Source: a virus
Lineage: Duplodnaviria > Heunggongvirae > Uroviricota > Caudoviricetes
Length of the DNA: 35,122 bases
IMG/VR virus record: IMGVR_UViG_2713896901_000010
Direction: 5' to 3' (one strand)
How positions within the stretch are numbered: position 1 is the stretch's first letter; each line of letters starts with the position of its first letter. A model generated the notes under the pieces. It made no database searches. It had not been told where the DNA came from and worked only from the letters and a program-made list of their open reading frames with translations. Below, in pieces: positions 1 to 35,122 of this stretch. The translations under genes were made by a program, and so were the position numbers.

Positions 1-258
1 ATGCAGCAGTATCACTATCCACTGGAAGACGGATTTACCGAAAGGATTCACACGCCGGGAGGCGTCAGGTCACTGGTGGAGGGATCGCACTTGATGAAAT
101 TACTCCGGGATCTCAATAAGGATGGATTTAATGTCGATGGCCCACTTGCCGAACTGACTGCACTGATTAACTACGTCACCAGCTCACAGATGTCTATGCA
201 GGATCTGCAAACACATCTCGACTATTGTGCCGAACAATTACGAAAACAAACCAGATAA
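1..258 (+). CDS. C-terminal fragment of an antirepressor-family protein (5' end upstream of window)
   Basis: Frame open from window edge to TAA 256-258; its ~80 aa share ~45% identity with the C-terminal module of the two complete antirepressor genes (576-1226, 2008-2952). Confidence 0.5.
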   Translation: MQQYHYPLEDGFTERIHTPGGVRSLVEGSHLMKLLRDLNKDGFNVDGPLAELTALINYVTSSQMSMQDLQTHLDYCAEQLRKQTR

Positions 259-261
259 GGT

Positions 262-290
262 TTGAAATTACCAAGTGGAGTGCTTATATT
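262..290 (+). promoter_or_regulatory. sigma70-like promoter TTGAAA-N17-TATATT
   Basis: -35 TTGAAA 262-267, 17-bp spacer, -10 TATATT 285-290; last T of -10 is first T of operator 290-304. Confidence 0.5.
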
Positions 291-304
291 TACCTTTGCG
301 GTAA
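290..304. promoter_or_regulatory. operator dyad TTACC-N5-GGTAA (site A)
   Basis: Perfect 5+5 inverted half-sites ttacc tttgc ggtaa. Confidence 0.6.
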
Positions 305-394
305 ATTTACATCGCACTCCTCTTGTGCCATAGTAATCGGGCACTGGCAAAATCCAGTGTCGGGATTGGTCTCCCGGATTACTAAGTGGCGCAT

Positions 395-417
395 ACCACG
401 CCAGACGTGGTTTTTTT
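395..417 (+). terminator. rho-independent terminator
   Basis: Stem accacg/cgtggt with 5-nt loop followed by T7 run 411-417. Confidence 0.6.
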
Positions 418-575
418 ATGCGTATAGCACAGTCATGCCAGAATTATGGTGGGCTGAATGGGGGTCCGAAAGGACGCCGGTACCACTTAGGCCGGTAAGA
501 CCAACTCCGTTCAGTTCACCACCATCTGATTGGTCTCAGCGGTGGTGATGTAATTCGCTAAGTGGAGACGCCATA

Positions 576-1226
576 ATGAACGCTCAACTCATCCCCGTAT
601 TCAACGGCACTATATCCAACGAAACCGCTCTTCTCGTTAATGCCCGTGATTTACACACTTTCCTCGATGTGGGTAAGCGATTTGCTTCGTGGATTGTCGA
701 ACGAATTGCTGAATATGGTTTCGTTGAAAATCAAGACTTTATGATTATTTCCCAAGTTCGGGAAAAAATAGGCAGAGGCCGTCCTGCAAAAGACTACCAC
801 CTCACCCTCGATACAGCCAAAGAGCTGGCGATGGTCGAGCGTAACGAAAAAGGTCGTCAGGTACGACGCTACTTCATTGAATGCGAGAAACGTTTAAGAC
901 AACAAGAAACAAAAGTGGAGAAGGTCTTGTCAGGCTTCATGCCCGCCATTATGGAGGCGATCAAGCTGGAAGACAAAAAAGAATACAGCGCCCCGCTGAA
1001 GCCCGGCTACCGCAGTCTGATTCATTCTCCGTCTGGTGTTCTCGGCCTGACGGAGAACTCACTGCTGATGAATCTGCTGAACCAGTTACAGGACGACGGG
1101 CACGACGTATCGGGCGCGGCGGCGGAGCTGACAACCATGTTCTGCTACATCGTCGGTGTGAGCAAATGCCTGCGTGATATCCAGACACACGCGGAGTACA
1201 TCAACGACAAGGCAGGATTCTTCTGA
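576..1226 (+). CDS. phage antirepressor, KilAC-type N-terminal domain plus shared C-terminal module
   Basis: ATG 576 with GGAG 9 nt upstream; N-terminal ...DYHLTLDTAKELAMVERNEKGRQVRRYFIECEKR matches the KilA-C/ANT antirepressor signature; last 80 aa identical to the C-terminus of the 2008-2952 product. Confidence 0.8.
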   Translation: MNAQLIPVFNGTISNETALLVNARDLHTFLDVGKRFASWIVERIAEYGFVENQDFMIISQVREKIGRGRPAKDYHLTLDTAKELAMVERNEKGRQVRRYFIECEKRLRQQETKVEKVLSGFMPAIMEAIKLEDKKEYSAPLKPGYRSLIHSPSGVLGLTENSLLMNLLNQLQDDGHDVSGAAAELTTMFCYIVGVSKCLRDIQTHAEYINDKAGFF

Positions 1227-1248
1227 CGGCGGCGGCACAGGGATGTGC
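994..1248. repeat. inverted repeat arm 1 (~255 bp, ~95% identical to reverse complement of 1985-2241)
   Basis: Direct comparison: only a handful of synonymous third-position differences plus one 3-5 nt indel just after the stop codon. Confidence 0.8.
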
Positions 1249-1260
1249 CTTTAAATAATT
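1234..1260 (+). terminator. weak hairpin terminator after antirepressor gene
   Basis: ggcaca-ggga-tgtgcc hairpin followed by tttaaataatt; lies inside the inverted repeat. Confidence 0.35.
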
Positions 1261-1290
1261 CTGTACAGATTGCAGGTGAATAGCGTACTA

Positions 1291-1305
1291 TTACCCCAAA
1301 GGTAA
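1291..1305. promoter_or_regulatory. operator dyad TTACC-N5-GGTAA (site B)
   Basis: ttacc ccaaa ggtaa; abuts a -10-like TACTAT (1286-1291), 14 bp upstream of ATG 1319. Confidence 0.6.
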
Positions 1306-1318
1306 ACCGAGAGTTTAC

Positions 1319-1534
1319 ATGAGGGGGGGAAGCATGGAACTGAACATCATCACATTAATGAAAGCGCTTATTGGCGGTGCAGGAAGTGGCTTTGCTCTTT
1401 CTGGCGGGCTGTCTATGATCATACCTACTTTCACAGTGACGACTGGCGTTGCCTACCTTTTTGCCATTACTGGCGGTCTGGCTATGGCAGGTACTTACAT
1501 TTTAAAAAAAATGAGTTCCGGTAGTGCAGACTGA
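1319..1534 (+). CDS. small glycine-zipper membrane peptide (66-71 aa), function unknown
   Basis: ATG 1319 or ATG 1334 preceded by GAGGGGGGG; product MELNIITLMKALIGG/AGSGFALSGGLSMIIPTFTVTTGVAYLFAITGGLAMAGTYILKK is hydrophobic with repeated small-xxx-small motifs; AT-rich. Confidence 0.55.
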   Translation: MRGGSMELNIITLMKALIGGAGSGFALSGGLSMIIPTFTVTTGVAYLFAITGGLAMAGTYILKKMSSGSAD

Positions 1535-1871
1535 GATCGTACAAGAATCACATTGGTACAATCCACAGACCGCTCAGGAGCTGGCGATCTTTTATTGTAT
1601 CCTTTGCATTGTGTATATAGTAATCCACCTGATATGGGATTTTCTCTCAAAAGAGACTGGTAGGTTTTCTGTTGTTAACCTTCAGTACAAACTGAATGAG
1701 GTATATTCATCAACCACATTCGCAACGAGTGGTTTTTTCCTCGTTATGTTATGCGACATGAATAACCCTCTTAGAACATCAGATGCGTTTATCATACCGC
1801 TTATCTTGGCAATGCTTACTGGATTCATGATATCAATATCCGCAATAGCGCCAAAAAAAGTTAACATTTAA
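1524..1871 (+). CDS. predicted 3-TM membrane protein (start uncertain, GTG 1524)
   Basis: Overlaps stop of upstream gene; three hydrophobic segments; no ATG before residue 75, so the start is unresolved; stop TAA 1869-1871 sits at the foot of a strong terminator. Confidence 0.4.
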   Translation: MQTEIVQESHWYNPQTAQELAIFYCILCIVYIVIHLIWDFLSKETGRFSVVNLQYKLNEVYSSTTFATSGFFLVMLCDMNNPLRTSDAFIIPLILAMLTGFMISISAIAPKKVNI

Positions 1872-1893
1872 GCCCGCACTGCGGGCTTTTTTG
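1871..1893 (+). terminator. rho-independent terminator
   Basis: agcccgc-act-gcgggct hairpin followed by TTTTTT. Confidence 0.75.
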
Positions 1894-1930
1894 TGTCTGC
1901 GGATTCCCGCCCGGGCGGCGGTGGCATTCG

Positions 1931-1956
1931 TTAAAAACAAGGCCGCGAAAGCGGCC
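1931..1956 (-). terminator. rho-independent terminator for the minus-strand ant gene
   Basis: On minus strand GGCCGC-tttc-GCGGCC followed by TTGTTTTT. Confidence 0.6.
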
Positions 1957-1957
1957 T

Positions 1958-1969
1958 GTGACATGTCAC
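1958..1969. repeat. 12-bp perfect palindrome GTGACATGTCAC (copy 1 of 2)
   Basis: Identical 12-mer recurs at 22609-22620; both copies sit just 5' of a minus-strand terminator. Confidence 0.5.
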
Positions 1970-1984
1970 GATAGTTCCGTTTTG

Positions 1985-2241
1985 CACATCCCTGTGCCGC
2001 CGTTCTGTCAGAAGAACCCTGCCTTGTCGTTGATGTACTCCGCGTGGGTCTGGATATCACGCAGGCACTTGCTCACACCGACGATGTAGCAGAACATGGT
2101 GGTCAGCTCCGCCGCCGCGCCCGATACATCGTGCCCGTCGTCCTGTAACTGGTTAAGCAGATTCATCAGCAGTGAGTTCTCCGTCAGGCCGAGAACACCC
2201 GACGGCGAATGAATCAGACTGCGGTAGCCGGGCTTCAGCGG
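1985..2241. repeat. inverted repeat arm 2 (partner of 994-1248)
   Basis: Reverse complement matches 994-1248 at ~95%. Confidence 0.8.
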
Positions 2242-2952
2242 ATAACCATAACATTTTGTCTGTGTTTTAATTGCCTCACGAAGCGCATCTAACATCTTGA
2301 CTGCCACTTCATCATTCTCTGATGCAGATCCAGCAGGGAGATGCTCCCCTTCAAGCGGAACCCGAGCAACAAGAGACAACGCTTCGGCGAATTGATCTTC
2401 ATCAATTTCTTTGTACGAACAGCCAAAATGAGATTTCAGTGACGACCACATGGTGATCATCGCCTTAGCCTGTTTTTCTTTTGGCAGAGACTGACCGCGA
2501 CTCATGACGAGTTGTTTAATGGCTTCCTGCTGTTCAGTGGTTATTTTACCCGGCAGCGCCTTTTTAGCTTTGCGTGGGTTAACCACATGGCCTTTAGTCC
2601 AGTACTCGTAGAGCACATCGTCACACTCTTCCTGATACTGGATTACCTTGTCGCGGATTTCAGGGCGGACTTTGTTAGGGCTGATGGTTTGCAACCAGCC
2701 AGCAAGTTTGCGAAGTGCCAAACAAATAATCTCACGGCGCTGTTCATCCCCAGGAAGCTGCATTGTGATTTTCACAATGCAGGTTTTAAACCGCTGCTTC
2801 ATTTTCGTAAACTGTGAAGCCCAATCCATACCCATGCCTTCAACGATAGGTTTCATTGGGGTGTACGGTTCTCCGTTGTGATTGACAACATAAAGTTCTG
2901 CGCCGTGGAATGGCACGTTGATAGTAGATACCGCTGTTGCTATACTCGCCAT
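2008..2952 (-). CDS. ant: antirepressor Ant (P22 Ant-like N-terminus plus shared C-terminal module)
   Basis: ATG 2952 with AGGA upstream; N-terminus ...INVPFHGAELYVVNHNGEPYTPMKPIVEGMG resembles P22 Ant ...SYVPFNGQQVRTVLIDGEPWF; sits downstream of arc as in P22 immI. Confidence 0.8.
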   Translation of the reverse strand: MASIATAVSTINVPFHGAELYVVNHNGEPYTPMKPIVEGMGMDWASQFTKMKQRFKTCIVKITMQLPGDEQRREIICLALRKLAGWLQTISPNKVRPEIRDKVIQYQEECDDVLYEYWTKGHVVNPRKAKKALPGKITTEQQEAIKQLVMSRGQSLPKEKQAKAMITMWSSLKSHFGCSYKEIDEDQFAEALSLVARVPLEGEHLPAGSASENDEVAVKMLDALREAIKTQTKCYGYPLKPGYRSLIHSPSGVLGLTENSLLMNLLNQLQDDGHDVSGAAAELTTMFCYIVGVSKCLRDIQTHAEYINDKAGFF

Positions 2953-3024
2953 GTCGTTAATTCCTATACGTAGTTTTACGATACTGAAGCCCTGACGGTC
3001 TGGCCACCGTTGGGCTTCGCTGTT

Positions 3025-3192
3025 TTATGCCACGCTATTCTTCTCACCAGTGAGTCCATACACTTTCCTCAGCTGATAGATAATCTCTGTATTGAACTTT
3101 CGGCATTCTTTTTCGCCATTTCTTTCAATAGCTAACTTCACATCGTCCGGAAAACGAACTCGTCGTTGACACATCTCTTTTGCTTTTTGCAT
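3025..3192 (-). CDS. arc: Arc-like ribbon-helix-helix repressor (55 aa)
   Basis: Internal ATG 3192 with AAGGAG at 7-nt spacing; RRVRFPDDVKLAIERNGEKECRKFNTEIIYQL parallels P22 Arc RWPREVLDLVRKVAEENGRSVNSEIYQRV. Confidence 0.75.
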   Translation of the reverse strand: MQKAKEMCQRRVRFPDDVKLAIERNGEKECRKFNTEIIYQLRKVYGLTGEKNSVA

Positions 3193-3206
3193 TTCATATC
3201 TCCTTG

Positions 3207-3266
3207 GCCCCACCGTGGGGCAAAACAATTGTCACACCGTGCGTCATTGATGTCAAGCACACGGTG
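3207..3266. promoter_or_regulatory. divergent arc/mnt control region with three spaced CACCGTG/CACGGTG heptamers
   Basis: caccgtg 3211-3217 (inside palindrome gccccaccgtggggc 3207-3221), caccgtg 3235-3241, cacggtg 3260-3266; spacing 24 and 25 bp. Confidence 0.5.
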
Positions 3267-3312
3267 AGGCATACTTCAATCATTGCAAGTAACTCAATAT
3301 TTGGTGAAGAAC

Positions 3313-3744
3313 ATGAGCAGAGAAGATCCACAACTAAGGATCAGACTTCCCGTTGAAGTAAAAGAAAAAATAGAAATTTCTGCAAAAGCCAATAAGCGAT
3401 CAATGAACGCTGAAATAGTACAACGTCTTGACACCAGCTTTCTGAAAGATATTCATGAAGATGACGTAATTTCTGCTTATGAAGCAAAAATTATTGCAAA
3501 CAATGCACGGCATGAAATATCAAATATTATTTTCAAAAGAACTTTTAATGAAATCAATAAGAAAATAACACTTGGACATACAAGTTTTTATATAAACCTT
3601 AATGACCTTGAACTGGAATCACTTGCAGATAATGATTACCAGATCATCTTTGAAAAAACATTTAATAAGCTCAATGAACTAGGTTACATCATCTGTGAAA
3701 ACTCATGGGATGCAGATGGTTTTGGAATTGAAATACCTGAATAG
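3313..3744 (+). CDS. mnt: Mnt-like RHH repressor with ~60-aa extra C-terminal extension
   Basis: ATG 3313 (table start 3283 is TTG); MSREDPQLRIRLPVEVKEKIEISAKANKRSMNAEIVQRL closely parallels P22 Mnt MARDDPHFNFRMPMEVREKLKFRAEANGRSMNSELLQIV; divergent from arc-ant as in P22. Confidence 0.8.
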   Translation: MSREDPQLRIRLPVEVKEKIEISAKANKRSMNAEIVQRLDTSFLKDIHEDDVISAYEAKIIANNARHEISNIIFKRTFNEINKKITLGHTSFYINLNDLELESLADNDYQIIFEKTFNKLNELGYIICENSWDADGFGIEIPE

Positions 3745-3786
3745 GAAGAACAAAAGGCGTGTACATATTACACGTCTTTAATACAA

Positions 3787-4398
3787 TTGAAAAACGCCAC
3801 ATTACTGATGTATGTTACAACAAGGAGCGATATTTTGAAAACCATATCTATATTAAAGGTTGCATTAGGCGTCGCTATTATTTTGACTCTCTCAATATTG
3901 TTTTATTTTTACCACAAAAAAACTGCTATTGCTCTTGATGGTCACGCGGCAAACTCATTTTTCTCAGAGTACATAGTGCCGCTATCAGGAAGCGGTATAA
4001 CAAATAAATATACTGACTATGACATCAAATATGGAATTGATGATGGGGAGACTATTGCATTACATGTAATCATTAAAAACCTAATGACAGTAAATAAAAA
4101 TACAGACTTCAACGATAAAAATACAATACATCACAACAACAGCAAAACATTAATTTCTTATAGTAGCAACATCTATACGGATAAATACCTAAAATACATC
4201 TCAGAAGATACAATAAAAGCAACCAGCGAAAAGTTAAAAAACATATATTGTGCATCCGGCAGTTTTCACAAATTATCGCCGCAAGAGCGTTTATTCTACG
4301 AAGCAAGAAAACAACGTAAGTCAATAATATTCCATTATTATGCTGATTCAGGGGAGTCACTCATATTTAATATTGGGGTTTCCCCTGAATCATGCTAA
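3787..4398 (+). CDS. membrane-anchored protein of unknown function at the sieA position
   Basis: Most likely start is TTG 3835 (AAGGAG 3822-3827, 7-nt spacer), alternative ATG 3808; one N-terminal TM helix then an Asn/Lys/Tyr-rich domain; very AT-rich. Confidence 0.55.
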   Translation: MKNATLLMYVTTRSDILKTISILKVALGVAIILTLSILFYFYHKKTAIALDGHAANSFFSEYIVPLSGSGITNKYTDYDIKYGIDDGETIALHVIIKNLMTVNKNTDFNDKNTIHHNNSKTLISYSSNIYTDKYLKYISEDTIKATSEKLKNIYCASGSFHKLSPQERLFYEARKQRKSIIFHYYADSGESLIFNIGVSPESC

Positions 4399-4409
4399 AG
4401 GCGTTTAAC

Positions 4410-29438: not shown

Positions 29439-30023
29439 ATGAAAAGTATCCAGGACGTCCGCAGGCAAAATCTCAACGACTTGATCGACCGTGAATTCAA
29501 TGGTGTTCAGACGCGGATGGCAGAAAAACTTGGAACTCAGGCAAATCTGGTAAACCGCTGGGCTCTTGGAAAGAAGGTTATCGGCGACCAGGTTGCGCGA
29601 AAAATTGAAGCTGCCGCCAATAAACCCCGTAACTGGCTTGATATCGATCGCTCGCTTTCTCAGGAAGGTTTTCAGCCTGTCGGCCCAAGCGACATTGGTC
29701 AGCTGGCGGCTCACAACCTGGAACGCTGGATGAGCGAAAGCCGCGACCTTTCAACACAGGGAAAACTTCACCGCGCATCCGGCGTCGCCCAGGTGACAAT
29801 CAGCCGCCTGTTAAACAATGAGGTCAGCGTTTCCATTTCCACCTTGGAGAATGTTGCATCCGCATTCGGGCGTCACGGCTATGAATTACTGATTCACCCG
29901 CACGACCCTGCGACCATCAACTATGACCGCTCGCGCTACGCATTGTTACCCGAAACCGAGAAAGCAAAGATCGAAAGTTACATTGAATTTGTCATCAATC
30001 AGAACGAAAAAAACAAACAATAA
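29439..30023 (+). CDS. CI-like repressor with two HTH motifs and no S24 peptidase domain (194 aa)
   Basis: N-terminal XRE-type HTH (MAEKLGTQANLVNRW) plus second HTH (SGVAQVTISRLLNNEVSVSISTLENVA); no Ser/Lys autoproteolysis domain visible. Confidence 0.7.
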   Translation: MKSIQDVRRQNLNDLIDREFNGVQTRMAEKLGTQANLVNRWALGKKVIGDQVARKIEAAANKPRNWLDIDRSLSQEGFQPVGPSDIGQLAAHNLERWMSESRDLSTQGKLHRASGVAQVTISRLLNNEVSVSISTLENVASAFGRHGYELLIHPHDPATINYDRSRYALLPETEKAKIESYIEFVINQNEKNKQ

Positions 30024-30331: not shown

Positions 30332-30631
30332 ATGAACGTTAATCAGCAGAAAAATCTTCAAAAAATCATGCAGGCATTCGACAAGGACTACCGCCTGTCA
30401 GAACAGCTATATGACCGACAAGTCGAACTGATTGAGAGTATCCGGATTCATCAACTGTCCTCAACTTTCGACGTTGTAACAGGCAAAGGCGTTCGTCAGG
30501 AAGTACTGGAGGCTGCTAAAGACAGCCCTGAGTTCGAAGAACTGATGGATGCCTATCGGCGAGAGGCAATGGCAATTATCGCCCGCTGGGATCTGGCTGA
30601 TCGGCTTGATGGACAGAGGGACGCGGCATGA
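30332..30631 (+). CDS. hypothetical protein (99 aa)
   Basis: ATG 30332 with GGGAGG at 7-nt spacing; ATGA overlap with exonuclease gene. Confidence 0.45.
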   Translation: MNVNQQKNLQKIMQAFDKDYRLSEQLYDRQVELIESIRIHQLSSTFDVVTGKGVRQEVLEAAKDSPEFEELMDAYRREAMAIIARWDLADRLDGQRDAA

Positions 30632-31449
30632 AACCGGGAATTTATTTCGACATCAGCAACGAAGACTACCACGCCGGTGACGGCGTGAGTAAGTCGCAAC
30701 TGGACATGGTTGCCAAGAATCCGGCGCTTCTTAAATGGGTTCAGGCAGCACCAGAAGACGAAGAGAAAAAGTCTGCACTGGATATGGGAACCGCATTGCA
30801 CTGTCTGCTTCTGGAACCTGGAGAATTCGACAAACGCTTCATCGTTTCACCGAAATTCGATCGTCGGACAAAACAAGGTAAAGCTGACGAAGAAGCATTT
30901 CTTCGTGATGTGGCGGATATGGGTATTACGGTACTTGATGTCGAGCAGTGGCGAAAACTGGAGCTGATGCGTGATAGCGCAATGGCTCATCCGGCAGCAC
31001 GCTGGATGTTGGAAGCACCTGGTTACTGCGAAGCATCAATGTACTGGAACGATGAAGAGACGGGTGAGTTGTGCCGAATTCGTCCAGACAAATGGCTGAA
31101 CGAGCACAACGTGATCGTCGACGTGAAAAAGGTTGCAGATATGGACCGTTTTGCACGCCACATCGAGGAATTCCGCTACCACGTGCAGGACGCAATGTAC
31201 CGCGAAGGCGCAATGAGGGTTACTGGTCAGACGCATGGTTTTTTCTTTCTTGCCGTGAGCGAAAGCATTGATTGTGGTCGGTATCCGGTACGCGTGTTCG
31301 AGCTGGACGCGCCGGATGTCGATGCCGGGCACGCTCTGTTCCGCCGGGATCTGAATACCTATCACGAATGCCGCATCAACGATGAATGGGGCGGAGTGGA
31401 AATTATTAAACGCCCTGACTGGGCACGTAAACAGGATATGTACGTATGA
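30628..31449 (+). CDS. PD-(D/E)XK-family exonuclease (RecE/YqaJ-like), partner of the annealing protein (273 aa)
   Basis: N-terminal GIYFDISNEDYHAGDGVSKSQL, HCLLLEPGEFDKRF, and D-x-K in IVDVKKV; translationally coupled to the downstream annealing-protein gene. Confidence 0.65.
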   Translation: MKPGIYFDISNEDYHAGDGVSKSQLDMVAKNPALLKWVQAAPEDEEKKSALDMGTALHCLLLEPGEFDKRFIVSPKFDRRTKQGKADEEAFLRDVADMGITVLDVEQWRKLELMRDSAMAHPAARWMLEAPGYCEASMYWNDEETGELCRIRPDKWLNEHNVIVDVKKVADMDRFARHIEEFRYHVQDAMYREGAMRVTGQTHGFFFLAVSESIDCGRYPVRVFELDAPDVDAGHALFRRDLNTYHECRINDEWGGVEIIKRPDWARKQDMYV

Positions 31450-32327
31450 GCAATGATATCGCAATCACATCACAACCAGGCGCAACTGTAGGCACTGCTG
31501 CGGCAATCTTCAACCCCGAGGGCATGAATCAACTGGTGCGTTTCGCGGAGTTGATGTCACAAAGCAAAGCGACTGTACCGAAACATCTTGAAGGCAAACC
31601 TGCCGATTGCCTGGCGGTGACCATGCAGGCGGCACAGTGGGGAATGAACCCTTTCGCCGTGGCGCAGAAAACGCATGTGGTAAACGGAACGTTAGGCTAC
31701 GAAGCACAGTTGGTAAACGCGGTCGTATCCTCTTCCAGCCTGCTGGCGACACGCCTGAATTATCGCTGGAGCGGTGACTGGTCGAATGTTAACGGCAAAA
31801 CAGATAAATCACCGAATCTGACGGTAACTGTGTCAGCAGTTCTTAAAGGAGAAGCAGAACCACGTGAGCTTACCATCAGTATGGCGCAAGCCGGAGTGCG
31901 TAACTCTCCATTGTGGGAACAGGATCCGCGCCAGCAGCTTGCCTATCTTTGCACGAAACGATGGGCTCGCCTGCACGCTCCTGATGTACTTCTCGGTGTT
32001 TACACCCCTGACGAATTACAGGAAACGGCACCACGCGTTGAACGAGACATTACTCCGCAAACAACTACGGCTGCGGGAATGAATAGTCTGATCAACGCTA
32101 AAACAGTGAAAAAGCCTGATGAGCAAACACGTAAAGCGGATAGCCGTGATCCAGAAGAAATGCTGATGGCCTTTACCAGCGCAGCGATGAATTACAGCAC
32201 TGTCTCCGAACTGGATAAGGCTTACAAATACATTGCACAAAAACTTTCAGATGATGACGAACTGCTGGCAAAAGCCACCGACGTTTACAGCGTTCGTCGG
32301 GAAGAATTAAACGAAACATCTATGTAA
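31446..32327 (+). CDS. Bet/RecT-like single-strand annealing protein (293 aa)
   Basis: ADCLAVTMQAAQWGMNPF parallels lambda Bet AQFIALLIVANQYGLNPW; ERDITP motif shared with Bet. Confidence 0.7.
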   Translation: MSNDIAITSQPGATVGTAAAIFNPEGMNQLVRFAELMSQSKATVPKHLEGKPADCLAVTMQAAQWGMNPFAVAQKTHVVNGTLGYEAQLVNAVVSSSSLLATRLNYRWSGDWSNVNGKTDKSPNLTVTVSAVLKGEAEPRELTISMAQAGVRNSPLWEQDPRQQLAYLCTKRWARLHAPDVLLGVYTPDELQETAPRVERDITPQTTTAAGMNSLINAKTVKKPDEQTRKADSRDPEEMLMAFTSAAMNYSTVSELDKAYKYIAQKLSDDDELLAKATDVYSVRREELNETSM

Positions 32328-33871: not shown

Positions 33872-35122
33872 TTATTCCCCCGCCATCCACTTCTCAAACT
33901 TCGACGGGGAGAACGGAATCAGATCCGTATGCTCCCCGTTAATCCAAGAATCAATCATATCGGCCCACTGCTGCAACATGTAGGCGCGCTGTCTTGCGTA
34001 TTCCGCTTTGTTATATACGGCGCGCACACCTTTCTGTTCATGTGCCAGAGCCTTTTCAATCCAGTCTGAAGGATAACCAGCCTCATGCAACAACGTACTG
34101 GCTGTACGGCGCATATCATGTACAGTGAAGTCCTGAATATGCTCACCATCTTCATTTATTATTTTCACCGTTCTGTCGATCAGAGAGTTCAGCGCGGCAT
34201 TAGATAATGGCTTCCGGAAGTTGTAACGACCAGGAACCAGATATTCACTTCCACCAGCGCACATCTGCAACCCGACCAATATATCCTGTGCCTGTTTAGG
34301 CAGGTAAATAACGTGCGCCCGGCTTCCCTTCATGCGGTCTGAAGGAATTGTCCATGTCCATTTTTTAAAATCTATTTCGTCCCACGTTGCATTGGTGAAT
34401 TCTCCCTTACGAACCATGGTGATAAGCACCAGCTTTAAAGCCATTTTCATAGTGCCCATAGCACCAATGGCATCCAGCGTGCGGAAGAACAGGCCAATTT
34501 CTTCTGGTGTCAGTGTTCGCTCTCGTGGTTTAAATATGGCGATAGACGAAGGTTTAATGTCAGCCGCAGGATTAAACAAACCATGACCACGGTCATTGGC
34601 GTGACGGTATACGCTGCTGATGATCTCCCTGGCCTGTACTGCTGTTGCCCGACCACCGCGTTCGACAATCCGGTCACACAAATCACGAACCATCGATGTG
34701 GTAATTTCAGCCATCATTTTGTTGCCAAGAACCGGAAGTATGTCACGGTCGATCACCGCCTGCTTCATTGCGCGGGTACTGTCAGCCAGGATGACGTGTT
34801 TCATATAACTGTCGGTATGTACCGCAAACGTCTCGGCACCACGAATCTTTTTAATACCGTCACGTTTAGCCGCAGCCGGTGACTGGCCTGCTTTAAGCAG
34901 CTTCTTTGCAGCAATCAGTTCTTCTCGCGCTTCTGCCAGGCTGATACCGTCACGCCCATACTGCCCGATTACCAGTGTTTCGCGGCGACCGTTGATACGG
35001 TAGTCATAGCGAAACGAGACCGTGCCTGACGTAAGCACAGCTACATACAGCCCGTCACGATCGGAGACCTTGTACAGTTTGTCCTGCGGCTTGAGGTTTT
35101 TTAATTTTGTATCGGTAAGCAC
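33872..35122 (-). CDS. int: tyrosine integrase with N-terminal Arm-type domain; start at or just beyond window edge
   Basis: N-terminus (V/M)LTDTKLKNLKPQDKLYKVSDRDGLYVAV is the P4/CP4-57 Arm domain; C-terminal HDMRRTASTLLHEAG...RAVYNKAEY supplies the HxxR and catalytic Tyr; first codon at the edge is GTG. Confidence 0.9.
   Translation of the reverse strand: MLTDTKLKNLKPQDKLYKVSDRDGLYVAVLTSGTVSFRYDYRINGRRETLVIGQYGRDGISLAEAREELIAAKKLLKAGQSPAAAKRDGIKKIRGAETFAVHTDSYMKHVILADSTRAMKQAVIDRDILPVLGNKMMAEITTSMVRDLCDRIVERGGRATAVQAREIISSVYRHANDRGHGLFNPAADIKPSSIAIFKPRERTLTPEEIGLFFRTLDAIGAMGTMKMALKLVLITMVRKGEFTNATWDEIDFKKWTWTIPSDRMKGSRAHVIYLPKQAQDILVGLQMCAGGSEYLVPGRYNFRKPLSNAALNSLIDRTVKIINEDGEHIQDFTVHDMRRTASTLLHEAGYPSDWIEKALAHEQKGVRAVYNKAEYARQRAYMLQQWADMIDSWINGEHTDLIPFSPSKFEKWMAGE

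Follow-up and report, generated by a model that had tools for sequence, protein, structure and literature searches.

The common end of two convergent antirepressor genes: an inverted repeat around a variable and naturally inverted cargo slot

Why should two antirepressor genes that otherwise have nothing in common end in nearly the same DNA? And what becomes of the genes enclosed between these ends, which face each other as an inverted repeat? The questions are raised by a viral DNA of 35,122 nucleotides (IMG/VR record IMGVR_UViG_2713896901_000010), here called the window. A preliminary description, made from the sequence of the window, had already pointed to the repeat, had attributed it to recent gene conversion or module exchange, and had proposed that its arms can invert the segment between them. 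The repeat and its genes are described first, then the likely function of the shared module, and finally what related prophages reveal about inversion and exchange.

The repeat and the genes that form it

According to blastn, positions 993-1248 of the window are the reverse complement of 1984-2241, with 256/258 nt aligned at 95.7% identity and one 2-nt indel. A repeat search delimits arms of 235 nt at 993-1227 and 2007-2241, which are 97% complementary and separated by 779 nt. A gapped local alignment pairs 993-1229 with 2241-2005 (237 nt, 9 mismatches) and continues beyond the 2-nt indel with 1230-1248 against 2002-1984 (19 nt, 0 mismatches). The arms thus extend ~22 nt 3' of both stop codons, and the longest perfect run between them is 44 nt. 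A 256-nt repeat of 96% identity is beyond the reach of chance. Its arms are the 3' ends of an AntA-type and a P22_AR_N-type gene, as had been claimed for a repeat of ~255 bp and ~95% identity, and it encloses the spacer as an inverted repeat because the two genes are convergent.

993-1248, plus strand: left arm; last 77 codons and stop of the left antirepressor gene, with ~22 nt of 3' flank
1984-2241, minus strand: right arm; last 77 codons and stop of the immI ant gene, with ~24 nt of 3' flank
1249-1983, no strand: spacer of 735 bp; the invertible, exchangeable cargo slot
576-1226, plus strand: left antirepressor gene, 216 aa; AntA domain at residues 21-90, SPC32H-Ant-like C-terminal domain at residues 135-211
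2008-2952, minus strand: right antirepressor gene (immI ant), 314 aa; P22_AR_N domain at residues 12-123, SPC32H-Ant-like domain at residues 233-309
1334-1534, plus strand: cargo ORF 1, 66 aa, hydrophobic and rich in glycine; function unknown (PHROG 13406)
1524-1871, plus strand: cargo ORF 2, a hydrophobic product of up to 115 aa; function unknown (PHROG 36716)
1870-1888, plus strand: terminator T1, predicted end of the cargo transcript (z -4.0 against shuffles)
1940-1957, minus strand: terminator T2, predicted end of the ant transcript (z -4.0 against shuffles)

Eight of the 9 mismatches between the arms lie in coding sequence, and 8/8 are synonymous; the two proteins therefore end in the same 77 residues (PLKPGYRSL...KAGFF). 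The preliminary description was right in calling the differences almost all synonymous and the C-terminal module identical. Its length, however, is 77 aa by alignment and not the 80 aa given there.

The expected membrane operon and two terminators are indeed found in the spacer: two small hydrophobic ORFs and T1 and T2, which are oriented face to face between the arms. Among relatives, the left ~60 bp and the right 88 bp of the spacer are conserved, and the interior is variable. The conserved left end showed no sigma-70-like promoter, and we accordingly assume that the cargo shares a transcript with the gene upstream. A hairpin (GGCACA-GGGA-TGTGCC) that follows both stop codons was examined as a possible further terminator and discarded, its folding energy being like that of shuffles (z ~-0.8 to -0.9). 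PADLOC returned no match for the two cargo proteins, a 203-aa ORF and both antirepressors. The proteins encoded in the slot are toxin-like or membrane proteins (YafO, DUF4760, small transmembrane proteins), and for this reason its orientation and content may affect the phenotype of lysogens in pathogenic lineages of E. coli (the hosts include ETEC, STEC and ExPEC).

The two genes are governed by different control circuits. The left one (AntA, PF08346, 8.3e-28 in Pfam; PHROG 377 and 450) is preceded by an RNA leader.

341-417, plus strand: isrK-type sRNA (Rfam RF01394, 65.5 bits, GA 50)
442-526, plus strand: C4-type antisense RNA element (Rfam RF01695, 61.2 bits, GA 45)

Elements of the isrK/C4 kind are likewise located directly upstream of an AntA-type gene in the immI region of P1/P7 (c4-icd-ant) and in Gifsy-1 (isrK-orf45-anrP), in the latter of which the arrangement gates translation of the antirepressor (PMC4825925). 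Two differences are evident. The small upstream ORF of the window (435-548, 37 codons), as read from the sequence, stops 28 nt short of the antirepressor ATG (576) and does not overlap the antirepressor gene, and the AntA-type protein additionally bears the Ant module of Uetakevirus.

The right gene (P22_AR_N, PF10547, 9.6e-45 in Pfam) is embedded in components of a P22-type immI region, corresponding to mnt, arc, ant and sar.

2954-3021, plus strand: sar antisense RNA between arc and ant (Rfam RF00262, 45.2 bits, GA 43)
3025-3192, minus strand: arc-like small repressor gene upstream of ant (PHROG 228, 2.3e-5, a weak match)
3313-3744, plus strand: mnt-like ribbon-helix-helix repressor gene, divergent from arc-ant (Pfam Arc, PF03869, 1.1e-14)

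As in P22, the sar RNA has a promoter-like site (2918-2946) and a terminator (2997-3016) of its own. The arc-like ORF was called as 3025-3228 from a TTG start; it is 168 bp long in the annotation of relatives and is labelled 'Arc-like repressor' in that of TL-2011b. What differs from P22 is the C-terminus of ant: the position of P22_AR_C is taken by the Uetakevirus Ant module, and neither P22_AR_C nor any other Pfam family matches the last 77 aa even at E<=10. In ant relatives of P22-like and Stx phages, the likeness is confined to residues 1-224. This suggests that an immI module of P22 type, once borrowed, was fitted to a foreign repressor by a swap of its C-terminal domain.

The shared module and its presumed target

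What the module does could not be taken from family annotation. The isolated 77-aa module and an 85-aa ORF at the left end of the window show no real Pfam match even at E<=10, and PHROG 450 is annotated as 'unknown function'. A hit was obtained to a structure, PDB 5d50_E ('Anti-repressor protein', 86 aa), the Ant of Salmonella phage SPC32H. Its residues 3-79 align to residues 135-211 of the left protein (9.7e-14) and to residues 233-309 of the right one (1.4e-13). Judged by these alignments, the arm-encoded module is a full-length homologue of SPC32H Ant. The latter binds the phage repressor Rep and disassembles it (PMC9638917). The window contains counterparts of both partners.

1-258, plus strand: small antirepressor Ant standing on its own, 85 aa; third copy of the module, in diverged form
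29439-30023, plus strand: Rep repressor (PDB 5d50_A 'Repressor', 4e-42 over full length)

The small Ant ORF matches 5d50_E with 2e-46 and PHROG 450 with 2.6e-47, and shares 41% amino acid identity with the arm module. On the basis of this identity, the fused module would bind the Rep of the same phage, presumably the common target of all three Ant-domain proteins. The window thus resembles the Ant-Rep system of SPC32H (PDB 5D50/5D4Z), in which an Ant tetramer releases Rep from DNA, in the full-length Ant homology, the orthologous small Ant and the Rep. It differs in that the Ant domain is also found as a C-terminal fusion on two large proteins, of AntA and P22_AR_N type; SPC32H, epsilon15 and the other Salmonella phages possess the small form alone, at 1 place per record. 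Of the sequenced phages, 32 records contain the module, all of them epsilon15/phiV10-like and infecting Escherichia, Salmonella, Klebsiella or Enterobacter; identity is 79% for the module of Enterobacter phage Tyrion and 55% for the Klebsiella modules. A module without a Pfam family may therewith have received a function, that of the repressor-binding Ant domain of this group. The 'anti-repressor' of phage vB_EcoP_ZX5, which combines Bro-N with the module, carries the latter at 98.7% identity, and its overexpression lowered lysogeny, taking prophage titres from 10^9 to 10^6 (PMC9782041).

The control of the three copies differs. In 9 relatives the small Ant ORF is preceded, at a distance of 35 nt, by a LexA box, TACTGTATAAATATACAGTT; this site falls outside the window. 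It is seen only at this free-standing Ant of the relatives; the arm-bearing genes are under isrK/C4 and arc/mnt/sar control, respectively, and not under that of LexA. One prophage may thus possess three antirepressors of one specificity class with three separate controls.

We therefore read the locus in the following way. In a phiV10/epsilon15-like (Uetakevirus-type) prophage, the Ant domain is fused to the C-termini of two otherwise unrelated antirepressor-type proteins, the left gene having the RNA leader of the P1 immI / Gifsy-1 type and the right one the P22-type immI control. Purifying selection preserves the protein sequence of the module, and general homologous recombination, by host RecA or the RecE/RecT-like proteins of the phage, would make use of the DNA identity of the arms. 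Three outcomes result: patches of sequence pass from arm to arm; phages trade N-terminal domains and cargo cassettes, the arms serving as joints; and the spacer is inverted. With inversion, the cargo is detached from the 3' end of the left operon and becomes the 3'-terminal part of the ant operon. T2 is carried across and becomes the predicted terminator of the left gene, and cargo expression would then depend on orientation. As a whole, the combination of a fused Ant domain, convergent genes and general recombination that exchanges and inverts the cargo is probably the correct explanation.

Inversion of the slot

That the arms can invert the intervening segment, as had been supposed, is now documented by natural isomers. 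The predicted inversion junction, searched with an engineered junction query and a contiguous match required, is present in 3/36 complete E. coli genomes having this layout, namely ETEC1749, ETEC4085 and SCU-387; the isomer evidence consists of consensus assemblies only. The prophage of UTAK-6 is a native-orientation counterpart of that of ETEC4085. The locus of phage HEMP4, interrupted by the start of the circular record, is left without an assigned orientation. No inverted isomer was seen among the 15 two-arm IMG/VR loci and none of the window's own cargo, for which the best inverted matches start at query base 25 instead of base 1.

The clearest case is the comparison of loci L092 and L004. 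Their flanks are colinear at 99.6-99.8% identity, and the block of arm, spacer and arm is inverted at 98.5%. The same three protein accessions appear in reversed order on the opposite strand, and the inverted block starts and ends inside the arms. A further locus, L093, has the cargo of L008, again inverted. In the inverted isomers T1 and T2 change side and strand as predicted, with T2 directly after the left gene. The history of L092 is not a simple one, since both of its arms resemble the left arm of L004 and are not simple reciprocal recombinants of an L004-like parent. A single reciprocal exchange does not fit the arm polymorphisms and was rejected; the inversion was attended by conversion, or else the direct parent was a locus other than L004. 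Another locus, L091, is a mosaic with cargo on both operons and a crossover at the T1 hairpin, outside the arms.

Inversions by homologous recombination are known from rrn operons, IS copies and the paired prophages of E. coli O157; they likewise make use of inverted repeats of high identity and yield isomers in close relatives. The present case differs in scale, being ~1 kb and inside one prophage, in that the repeats are functional gene ends, and in that the segment inverted is a slot of variable accessory genes.

Does the slot switch regularly? The repeat could be kept because flipping provides a useful heterogeneity of lysogens, a programmed phase variation that needs no dedicated recombinase. 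Both orientations do occur among nearly identical prophages, the symmetrical layout of the terminators would yield two properly terminated operons in either orientation, and the cargo on both operons of L091 suggests that the position on the ant side is tolerated. Inverted isomers, however, are scarce: they are seen in only 3/36 genomes and in 0/15 of the two-arm IMG/VR loci. In addition, the arms are 4% diverged and offer perfect runs of at most 44 bp, and sequence divergence with short perfect runs lowers RecA-dependent recombination. We consider a frequent switch unlikely. The same doubt applies to its most elaborate form, in which accessory or defence-type cargo would flip at a meaningful rate between an isrK/C4-gated operon and a Pant operon controlled by Mnt, Arc and sar, the three Ant-domain proteins channelling SOS, RNA gate and immI to one repressor; this, too, we judge to be an improbable toggle.

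Exchange among relatives and the remaining explanations

Both arms, with identical edges, are found in 27 related loci from isolates, phage genomes and metagenomes. The preliminary description had asked whether the bracketed cargo varies among related prophages; it falls into 11 clusters in these 27 loci. The left gene occurs there with three types of N-terminal domain (AntA, Bro-N, ORF6N), which assort independently of the cargo. Behind all of them, and behind P22_AR_N as well, the homology starts at the same base. The Ant module is thus fused to four different types of N-terminal domain, and module exchange, one of the two origins originally proposed, is well supported. Domain shuffling in phage regulators with Bro-N, KilA-N, AntA and P22_AR_N domains was reportedly described by Iyer, Koonin and Aravind in 2002; here, too, one C-terminal module joins several unrelated N-domains. 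What distinguishes the present case is that the shuffling is recent enough for 94-97% nucleotide identity and leaves two inverted copies per genome.

One locus, L009, was taken for an inversion isomer and rejected on mapping. An AntA-type gene together with its leader has replaced the right P22_AR_N gene, of which an inverted, truncated fragment is retained, and the module is the joint of the replacement. Seen together with the isomers, such cassette joints mean that repeats made of coding sequence double as joints for exchange and as arms of an invertible slot.

Exchange probably also takes place between the arms themselves. There is no fixed left/right coding difference, and rare alleles private to both arms of one genome are found at 4 sites versus 0.86 expected by chance; variation is mostly at third codon positions, so that parallel mutation could account for part of the polymorphism the arms share. 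Homogenisation is slow, since the arms within a genome show 10.8 differences, slightly fewer than the 11.9 of random left/right pairs. The divergence of the arms within a genome, ~4%, equals the diversity of the population. The repeat is an old, conserved feature and not a recent event in this genome; of the 'recent gene conversion or module exchange' of the preliminary description, the exchange stands and the 'recent' has to be dropped. In the window, L001 and L024, which have the same cargo, no footprint of a double inversion, with arm segments exchanged between the sides, could be made out, the arms being too mosaic.

Could the repeat simply reflect that both proteins need the same domain, with neither exchange between the arms nor any consequence for recombination? 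Selection on the protein is certainly strong: 43 codons vary across 48 arms, and in 36 of them the variation is silent, in 7 it alters the amino acid. Moreover, both proteins probably target the same Rep. Protein-level constraint alone, however, does not explain why synonymous sites are ~85% conserved between the two copies, the remainder of the two genes being unrelated, nor why the identity runs through 19 nt of non-coding DNA past the indel. It is contradicted by the private alleles in both arms of one genome and by isomer breakpoints inside the arms, and is very unlikely.

A role at the RNA level is slightly less likely still. Transcripts not stopped at T1 or T2 would contain both arms, which could pair as a double-stranded hairpin of ~256 bp, a target of RNase III; such transcripts would at the same time be antisense to the other gene, and the two operons would thus be cross-regulated. 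This follows from geometry alone, and antisense RNAs are already part of both circuits. Two strong predicted terminators between the arms, however, stand in the way; no observation requires such a role, and the post-stop hairpin mentioned above is not significant.

The invertible segments of phages, such as the G segment of Mu with Gin, C of P1 with Cin and P of e14 with Pin, are well known; their invertases act on sites of ~26-34 bp and exchange the ends of tail fibres. The window shares with them the two orientations between inverted repeats and the re-attachment of coding DNA to another transcription unit, and a Gin/Cin/Pin/Hin-type invertase, or the integrase of the phage, might act on a short site within the arms. 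Yet the arms consist of 256 bp of coding sequence, the cargo consists of accessory genes instead of tail-fibre ends, and a gene for an invertase did not turn up. The ORFs of the window that were scanned contain no serine recombinase, resolvase or invertase domain; the only recombinases among them are a tyrosine integrase at 33872-35122 and the following pair.

30628-32327, plus strand: RecE-like exonuclease and RecT-like annealing protein (PHROG 412, 4e-125; PHROG 561, 1.1e-144)

Nor is an invertase gene annotated near the loci L001-L009 and L091-L093. The inversion breakpoints are consistent with general homologous recombination, which the crossover of L091 outside the arms also fits, and the RecE/RecT-like system, as identified by these matches, could act on the arms. 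Site-specific inversion is accordingly given hardly any credence.

Equally little speaks for an assembly artefact, i.e., a collapsed or duplicated repeat and mis-oriented scaffolds: a 256-bp repeat can mislead short-read assemblers, but the same structure with the same edges is present in 27 independently assembled loci, the arms differ at ~10 positions and hence are not collapsed copies, and the three isomers, with different cargo, stem from complete genomes of at least two studies (Belgium and USA).

The inverted repeat and the exchange between its arms

The 3' ends of two convergent antirepressor genes face each other across a spacer that carries the cargo:

576-1226 (+), left antirepressor gene; its 3' end is the left arm
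993-1248, left arm
1249-1983, spacer with two small hydrophobic cargo ORFs (PHROG 13406 and 36716)
1870-1888 (+), terminator T1
1940-1957 (-), terminator T2
1984-2241, right arm
2008-2952 (-), right antirepressor gene, immI ant; its 3' end is the right arm

The inverted repeat noted in the preliminary description is borne out by three approaches. A repeat search of the window finds arms of 235 nt (993-1227 and 2007-2241) that are 97% complementary. Gapped alignment lengthens them: 993-1229 matches 2241-2005 with 9 mismatches, and beyond a 2-nt indel 1230-1248 matches 2002-1984 perfectly over 19 nt. The complete arms (256/258 nt) are 95.7% identical by blastn, with perfect runs of up to 44 nt. 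Their GC content is 58-59%, that of the flanks 44-48% and that of the spacer 38-46%. All eight coding differences are synonymous, so that the last 77 residues of the two proteins, PLKPGYRSL...KAGFF, are identical; an estimate from the alignment, based on some 55-60 synonymous sites, puts dN at 0 and dS at about 0.15. The observation stands confirmed, and the analysis supports its first interpretation. The repeat is accounted for by duplication of a functional domain whose copies also serve as a recombination substrate.

A recent event in this genome, as had been proposed, is not borne out. In 21 distinct genomes the coding part of the arms does not display a single fixed left/right difference, and only 7 of 43 variable codons change the protein. 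The arms differ on average at 10.8 positions within a genome; across genomes the means are 10.6 (left-left), 8.8 (right-right) and 11.9 (left-right). The sides are somewhat differentiated (permutation p<0.0005), and the two arms of one genome resemble each other slightly more than randomly drawn pairs do (p=0.0015). This pattern implies that the repeat is old and kept alike by selection and occasional exchange. The suggested gene conversion or module exchange thus stands, whereas its recent origin does not. Four rare alleles, two sites in locus L016 and two adjacent ones in L002, have exactly two occurrences each, one per arm of the same genome; chance would yield 0.86. Such alleles, private to both arms, are the signature of within-genome gene conversion.

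The shared module and the control of the antirepressor genes

The 77-residue module matches no Pfam family, and its PHROG family, 450, is listed there as of unknown function. A search against solved structures is more informative: residues 135-211 of the left protein (9.7e-14) and 233-309 of the right one (1.4e-13) match residues 3-79 of the 'Anti-repressor protein' of PDB 5D50, nearly its entire 86 amino acids. The structure is that of the Rep-Ant complex from Salmonella phage SPC32H; there, an Ant tetramer engages two dimers of Rep and takes the DNA-binding tetramer apart (summarised in PMC9638917). Orthologues of both partners are present in the window, a free-standing Ant of 85 aa (ORF 1-258, +; 2e-46 vs 5d50_E) and Rep (29439-30023, +; 4e-42 along its whole length). 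Nine relatives have a consensus LexA box, TACTGTATAAATATACAGTT, 35 nt ahead of the small Ant ORF, and the SOS control of the free-standing Ant rests on these. The window begins exactly at the ATG of this ORF, so that the LexA/SOS operator lies just outside.

The N-terminal domains differ: AntA on the left (PF08346, 8.3e-28), P22_AR_N on the right (PF10547, 9.6e-45). The genes are also controlled differently, each by a circuit of recognisable type:

262-575 (+), leader of the left gene
262-290, promoter-like site in this leader
328-380, C4 target-like a1/b1 sequence in the leader, below threshold
341-417, isrK element upstream of the left gene, 65.5 bits
395-411, isrK terminator in the leader
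442-526, C4 antisense RNA element upstream of the left gene, 61.2 bits
2954-3021, sar antisense RNA between the arc-like gene and the start of ant, 45.2 bits (threshold 43)
3313-3744, mnt-like Arc-domain gene, divergent from the arc-like gene and ant

The leader of the left gene is of the type known from P1 immI and the Gifsy-1 isrK-orf45-anrP operon; in the latter, it gates translation of the antirepressor (PMC4825925). It also contains a 37-codon ORF (435-548), which does not overlap the antirepressor start and may be the counterpart of orf45/icd. The surroundings of the right gene are a P22-type immI region. Window 3250-4400 is strongly AT-rich (28-36% GC vs about 47% nearby). The block takes in a 203-aa ORF without PADLOC or Pfam match (3787-4398; PHROG 8033, function unknown), along with the C-terminal extension of the mnt-like gene, and looks like a separately acquired accessory gene. 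One phage therefore has three Ant-domain genes, the first free-standing and SOS-controlled, the second gated by isrK/C4, the third controlled by Mnt, Arc and sar.

Homology, the restriction of the module to certain phages and published work on vB_EcoP_ZX5 suggest that the fused modules act on the phage's own Rep. Among sequenced phages the module is confined to epsilon15/phiV10-like ones (32 records from Escherichia, Salmonella, Klebsiella and Enterobacter). The Bro-N 'anti-repressor' of vB_EcoP_ZX5 carries it at 98.7% identity, and overexpression of this protein lowered lysogeny about 1000-fold (PMC9782041). The right gene has relatives in P22-like and Stx phages, with only residues 1-224 in common and a different C-terminus. 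This fits a swap of the C-terminal part by which a borrowed immI antirepressor came to target the resident repressor.

The cargo slot among relatives

The set of 27 loci that have both arms, with identical outer and inner edges, consists of complete E. coli chromosomes and IMG/VR contigs besides phage TL-2011b and the window. The right gene is of the P22_AR_N type in all but one of them; the left gene has one of three unrelated N-termini (Bro-N 18, AntA 7, ORF6N 2). The junction of P22_AR_N with the module is found in 36 of 5,426 complete E. coli genomes. The comparison with related prophages proposed in the preliminary description shows that the bracketed cargo varies, with 11 cargo clusters in spacers of 735-1818 bp; among the annotated products are DUF4760, a YafO-family toxin and several small membrane proteins. 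Cargo types are combined independently with left-gene types, and homology sets in again precisely where the arm begins, at its first base, which marks the module as a recombination joint. The spacer ends are conserved too (about 60 bp left, 88-289 bp right). Most relatives have a 162-bp ORF ('transmembrane anchored protein', WP_000708858) between T1 and T2, outside both operons (right spacer end of L002-L008); in the window it is deleted, and 88 bp of its conserved block are left (1896-1983).

phiV10 and most module-bearing E. coli prophages have a left-type gene only and no repeat; phiV10 lacks the repeat because it lacks the P22-type immI region. In phiV10 (NC_007804.2, 4078-4757) the module of the Bro-N gene is broken (tblastn recovers 84% of it, split in two; the annotation gives a 194-aa Bro-N protein and a 29-aa ORF). 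At least three genomes, L009 (NZ_CP117008.1, 2342-5700), H79 and H80, have a rearranged locus. In this version arc and mnt are absent, and an AntA-type gene, together with its isrK/C4 leader, stands on the right-hand side. It converges with an ORF6N-type gene and is adjoined by a truncated piece of P22_AR_N, which is inverted and belongs to a different allele (77% identity).

Inversion of the slot

The long cargo ORFs run in the direction of the left gene throughout the first 24 two-arm loci. Complete E. coli genomes were searched with an inverted junction, the reverse complement of 1249-1330 joined to 1984 onward. The presumed ability of the arms to invert the intervening segment is realised in nature: ETEC1749, ETEC4085 and SCU-387 match contiguously from base 25/26. 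The other 33 records match from base 83, i.e., the arm, only and have no inverted junction; the best 25 records listed for the native junction match from base 1. An inverted isomer of the window's own cargo was not found among these genomes. ETEC4085 and UTAK-6 have colinear flanks (left 99.8%, right 99.6%), arm, spacer and second arm being inverted at 98.5% identity, with the same three protein accessions in reversed order on the opposite strand. SCU-387 has the cargo of L008 inverted, next to a different left gene.

In native order, the left gene is followed by cargo, T1(+), T2(-) and ant. After inversion, T2 comes immediately behind the left gene, on the plus strand; on the minus strand, ant is followed without an intervening terminator by the cargo, and T1 closes the transcript. 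Both arrangements thus yield two convergent operons with proper termination of each, and the cargo switches operon. Expression of the cargo would accordingly be predicted to change with orientation; the spacer shows no promoter-like site in its conserved left end.

As to the mechanism, no serine invertase domain was found in the window ORFs scanned, nor is such an enzyme annotated in the related loci whose annotation was read. The locus differs from the Gin/Cin/Pin class, as it has no invertase, short crossover sites or tail-fibre ends. Other recombination genes are at hand:

30628-32327 (+), RecE-like exonuclease and RecT-like annealing protein, downstream of Rep
33872-35122, tyrosine integrase, cut by the window end

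With perfect runs of up to 44 nt, the arms exceed the minimum of roughly 25-30 nt that RecA requires for exchange in E. coli. The most economical mechanism is general homologous recombination between the arms. A single, simple reciprocal exchange starting from a UTAK-6-like parent does not account for the arm polymorphisms of ETEC4085; conversion or an unsampled parent has to be invoked.

All of the parts are known: Ant and Rep of the SPC32H type, P22 immI, isrK/C4 leaders, shuffling of Bro-N, AntA and P22_AR_N domains, and inversion between inverted repeats. In the literature searched, three aspects appear to be undescribed: that the C-terminal module of these large 'antirepressors' is the SPC32H Ant domain, that it occurs three times in one phage under three controls, and that two fused copies frame an exchangeable, naturally invertible cargo slot.

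In ETEC1749 the slot is a mosaic: the T1 terminator, which is palindromic, joins a YafO cassette in native orientation to an inverted one, so that each antirepressor operon has its own cargo. The crossover (NZ_CP122712.1, 3340-3365) falls in the T1 stem (AATAGCCCGCAGCGCGGGCTATT), which implies that the terminator hairpin acted as a second, very short recombination site in the slot.
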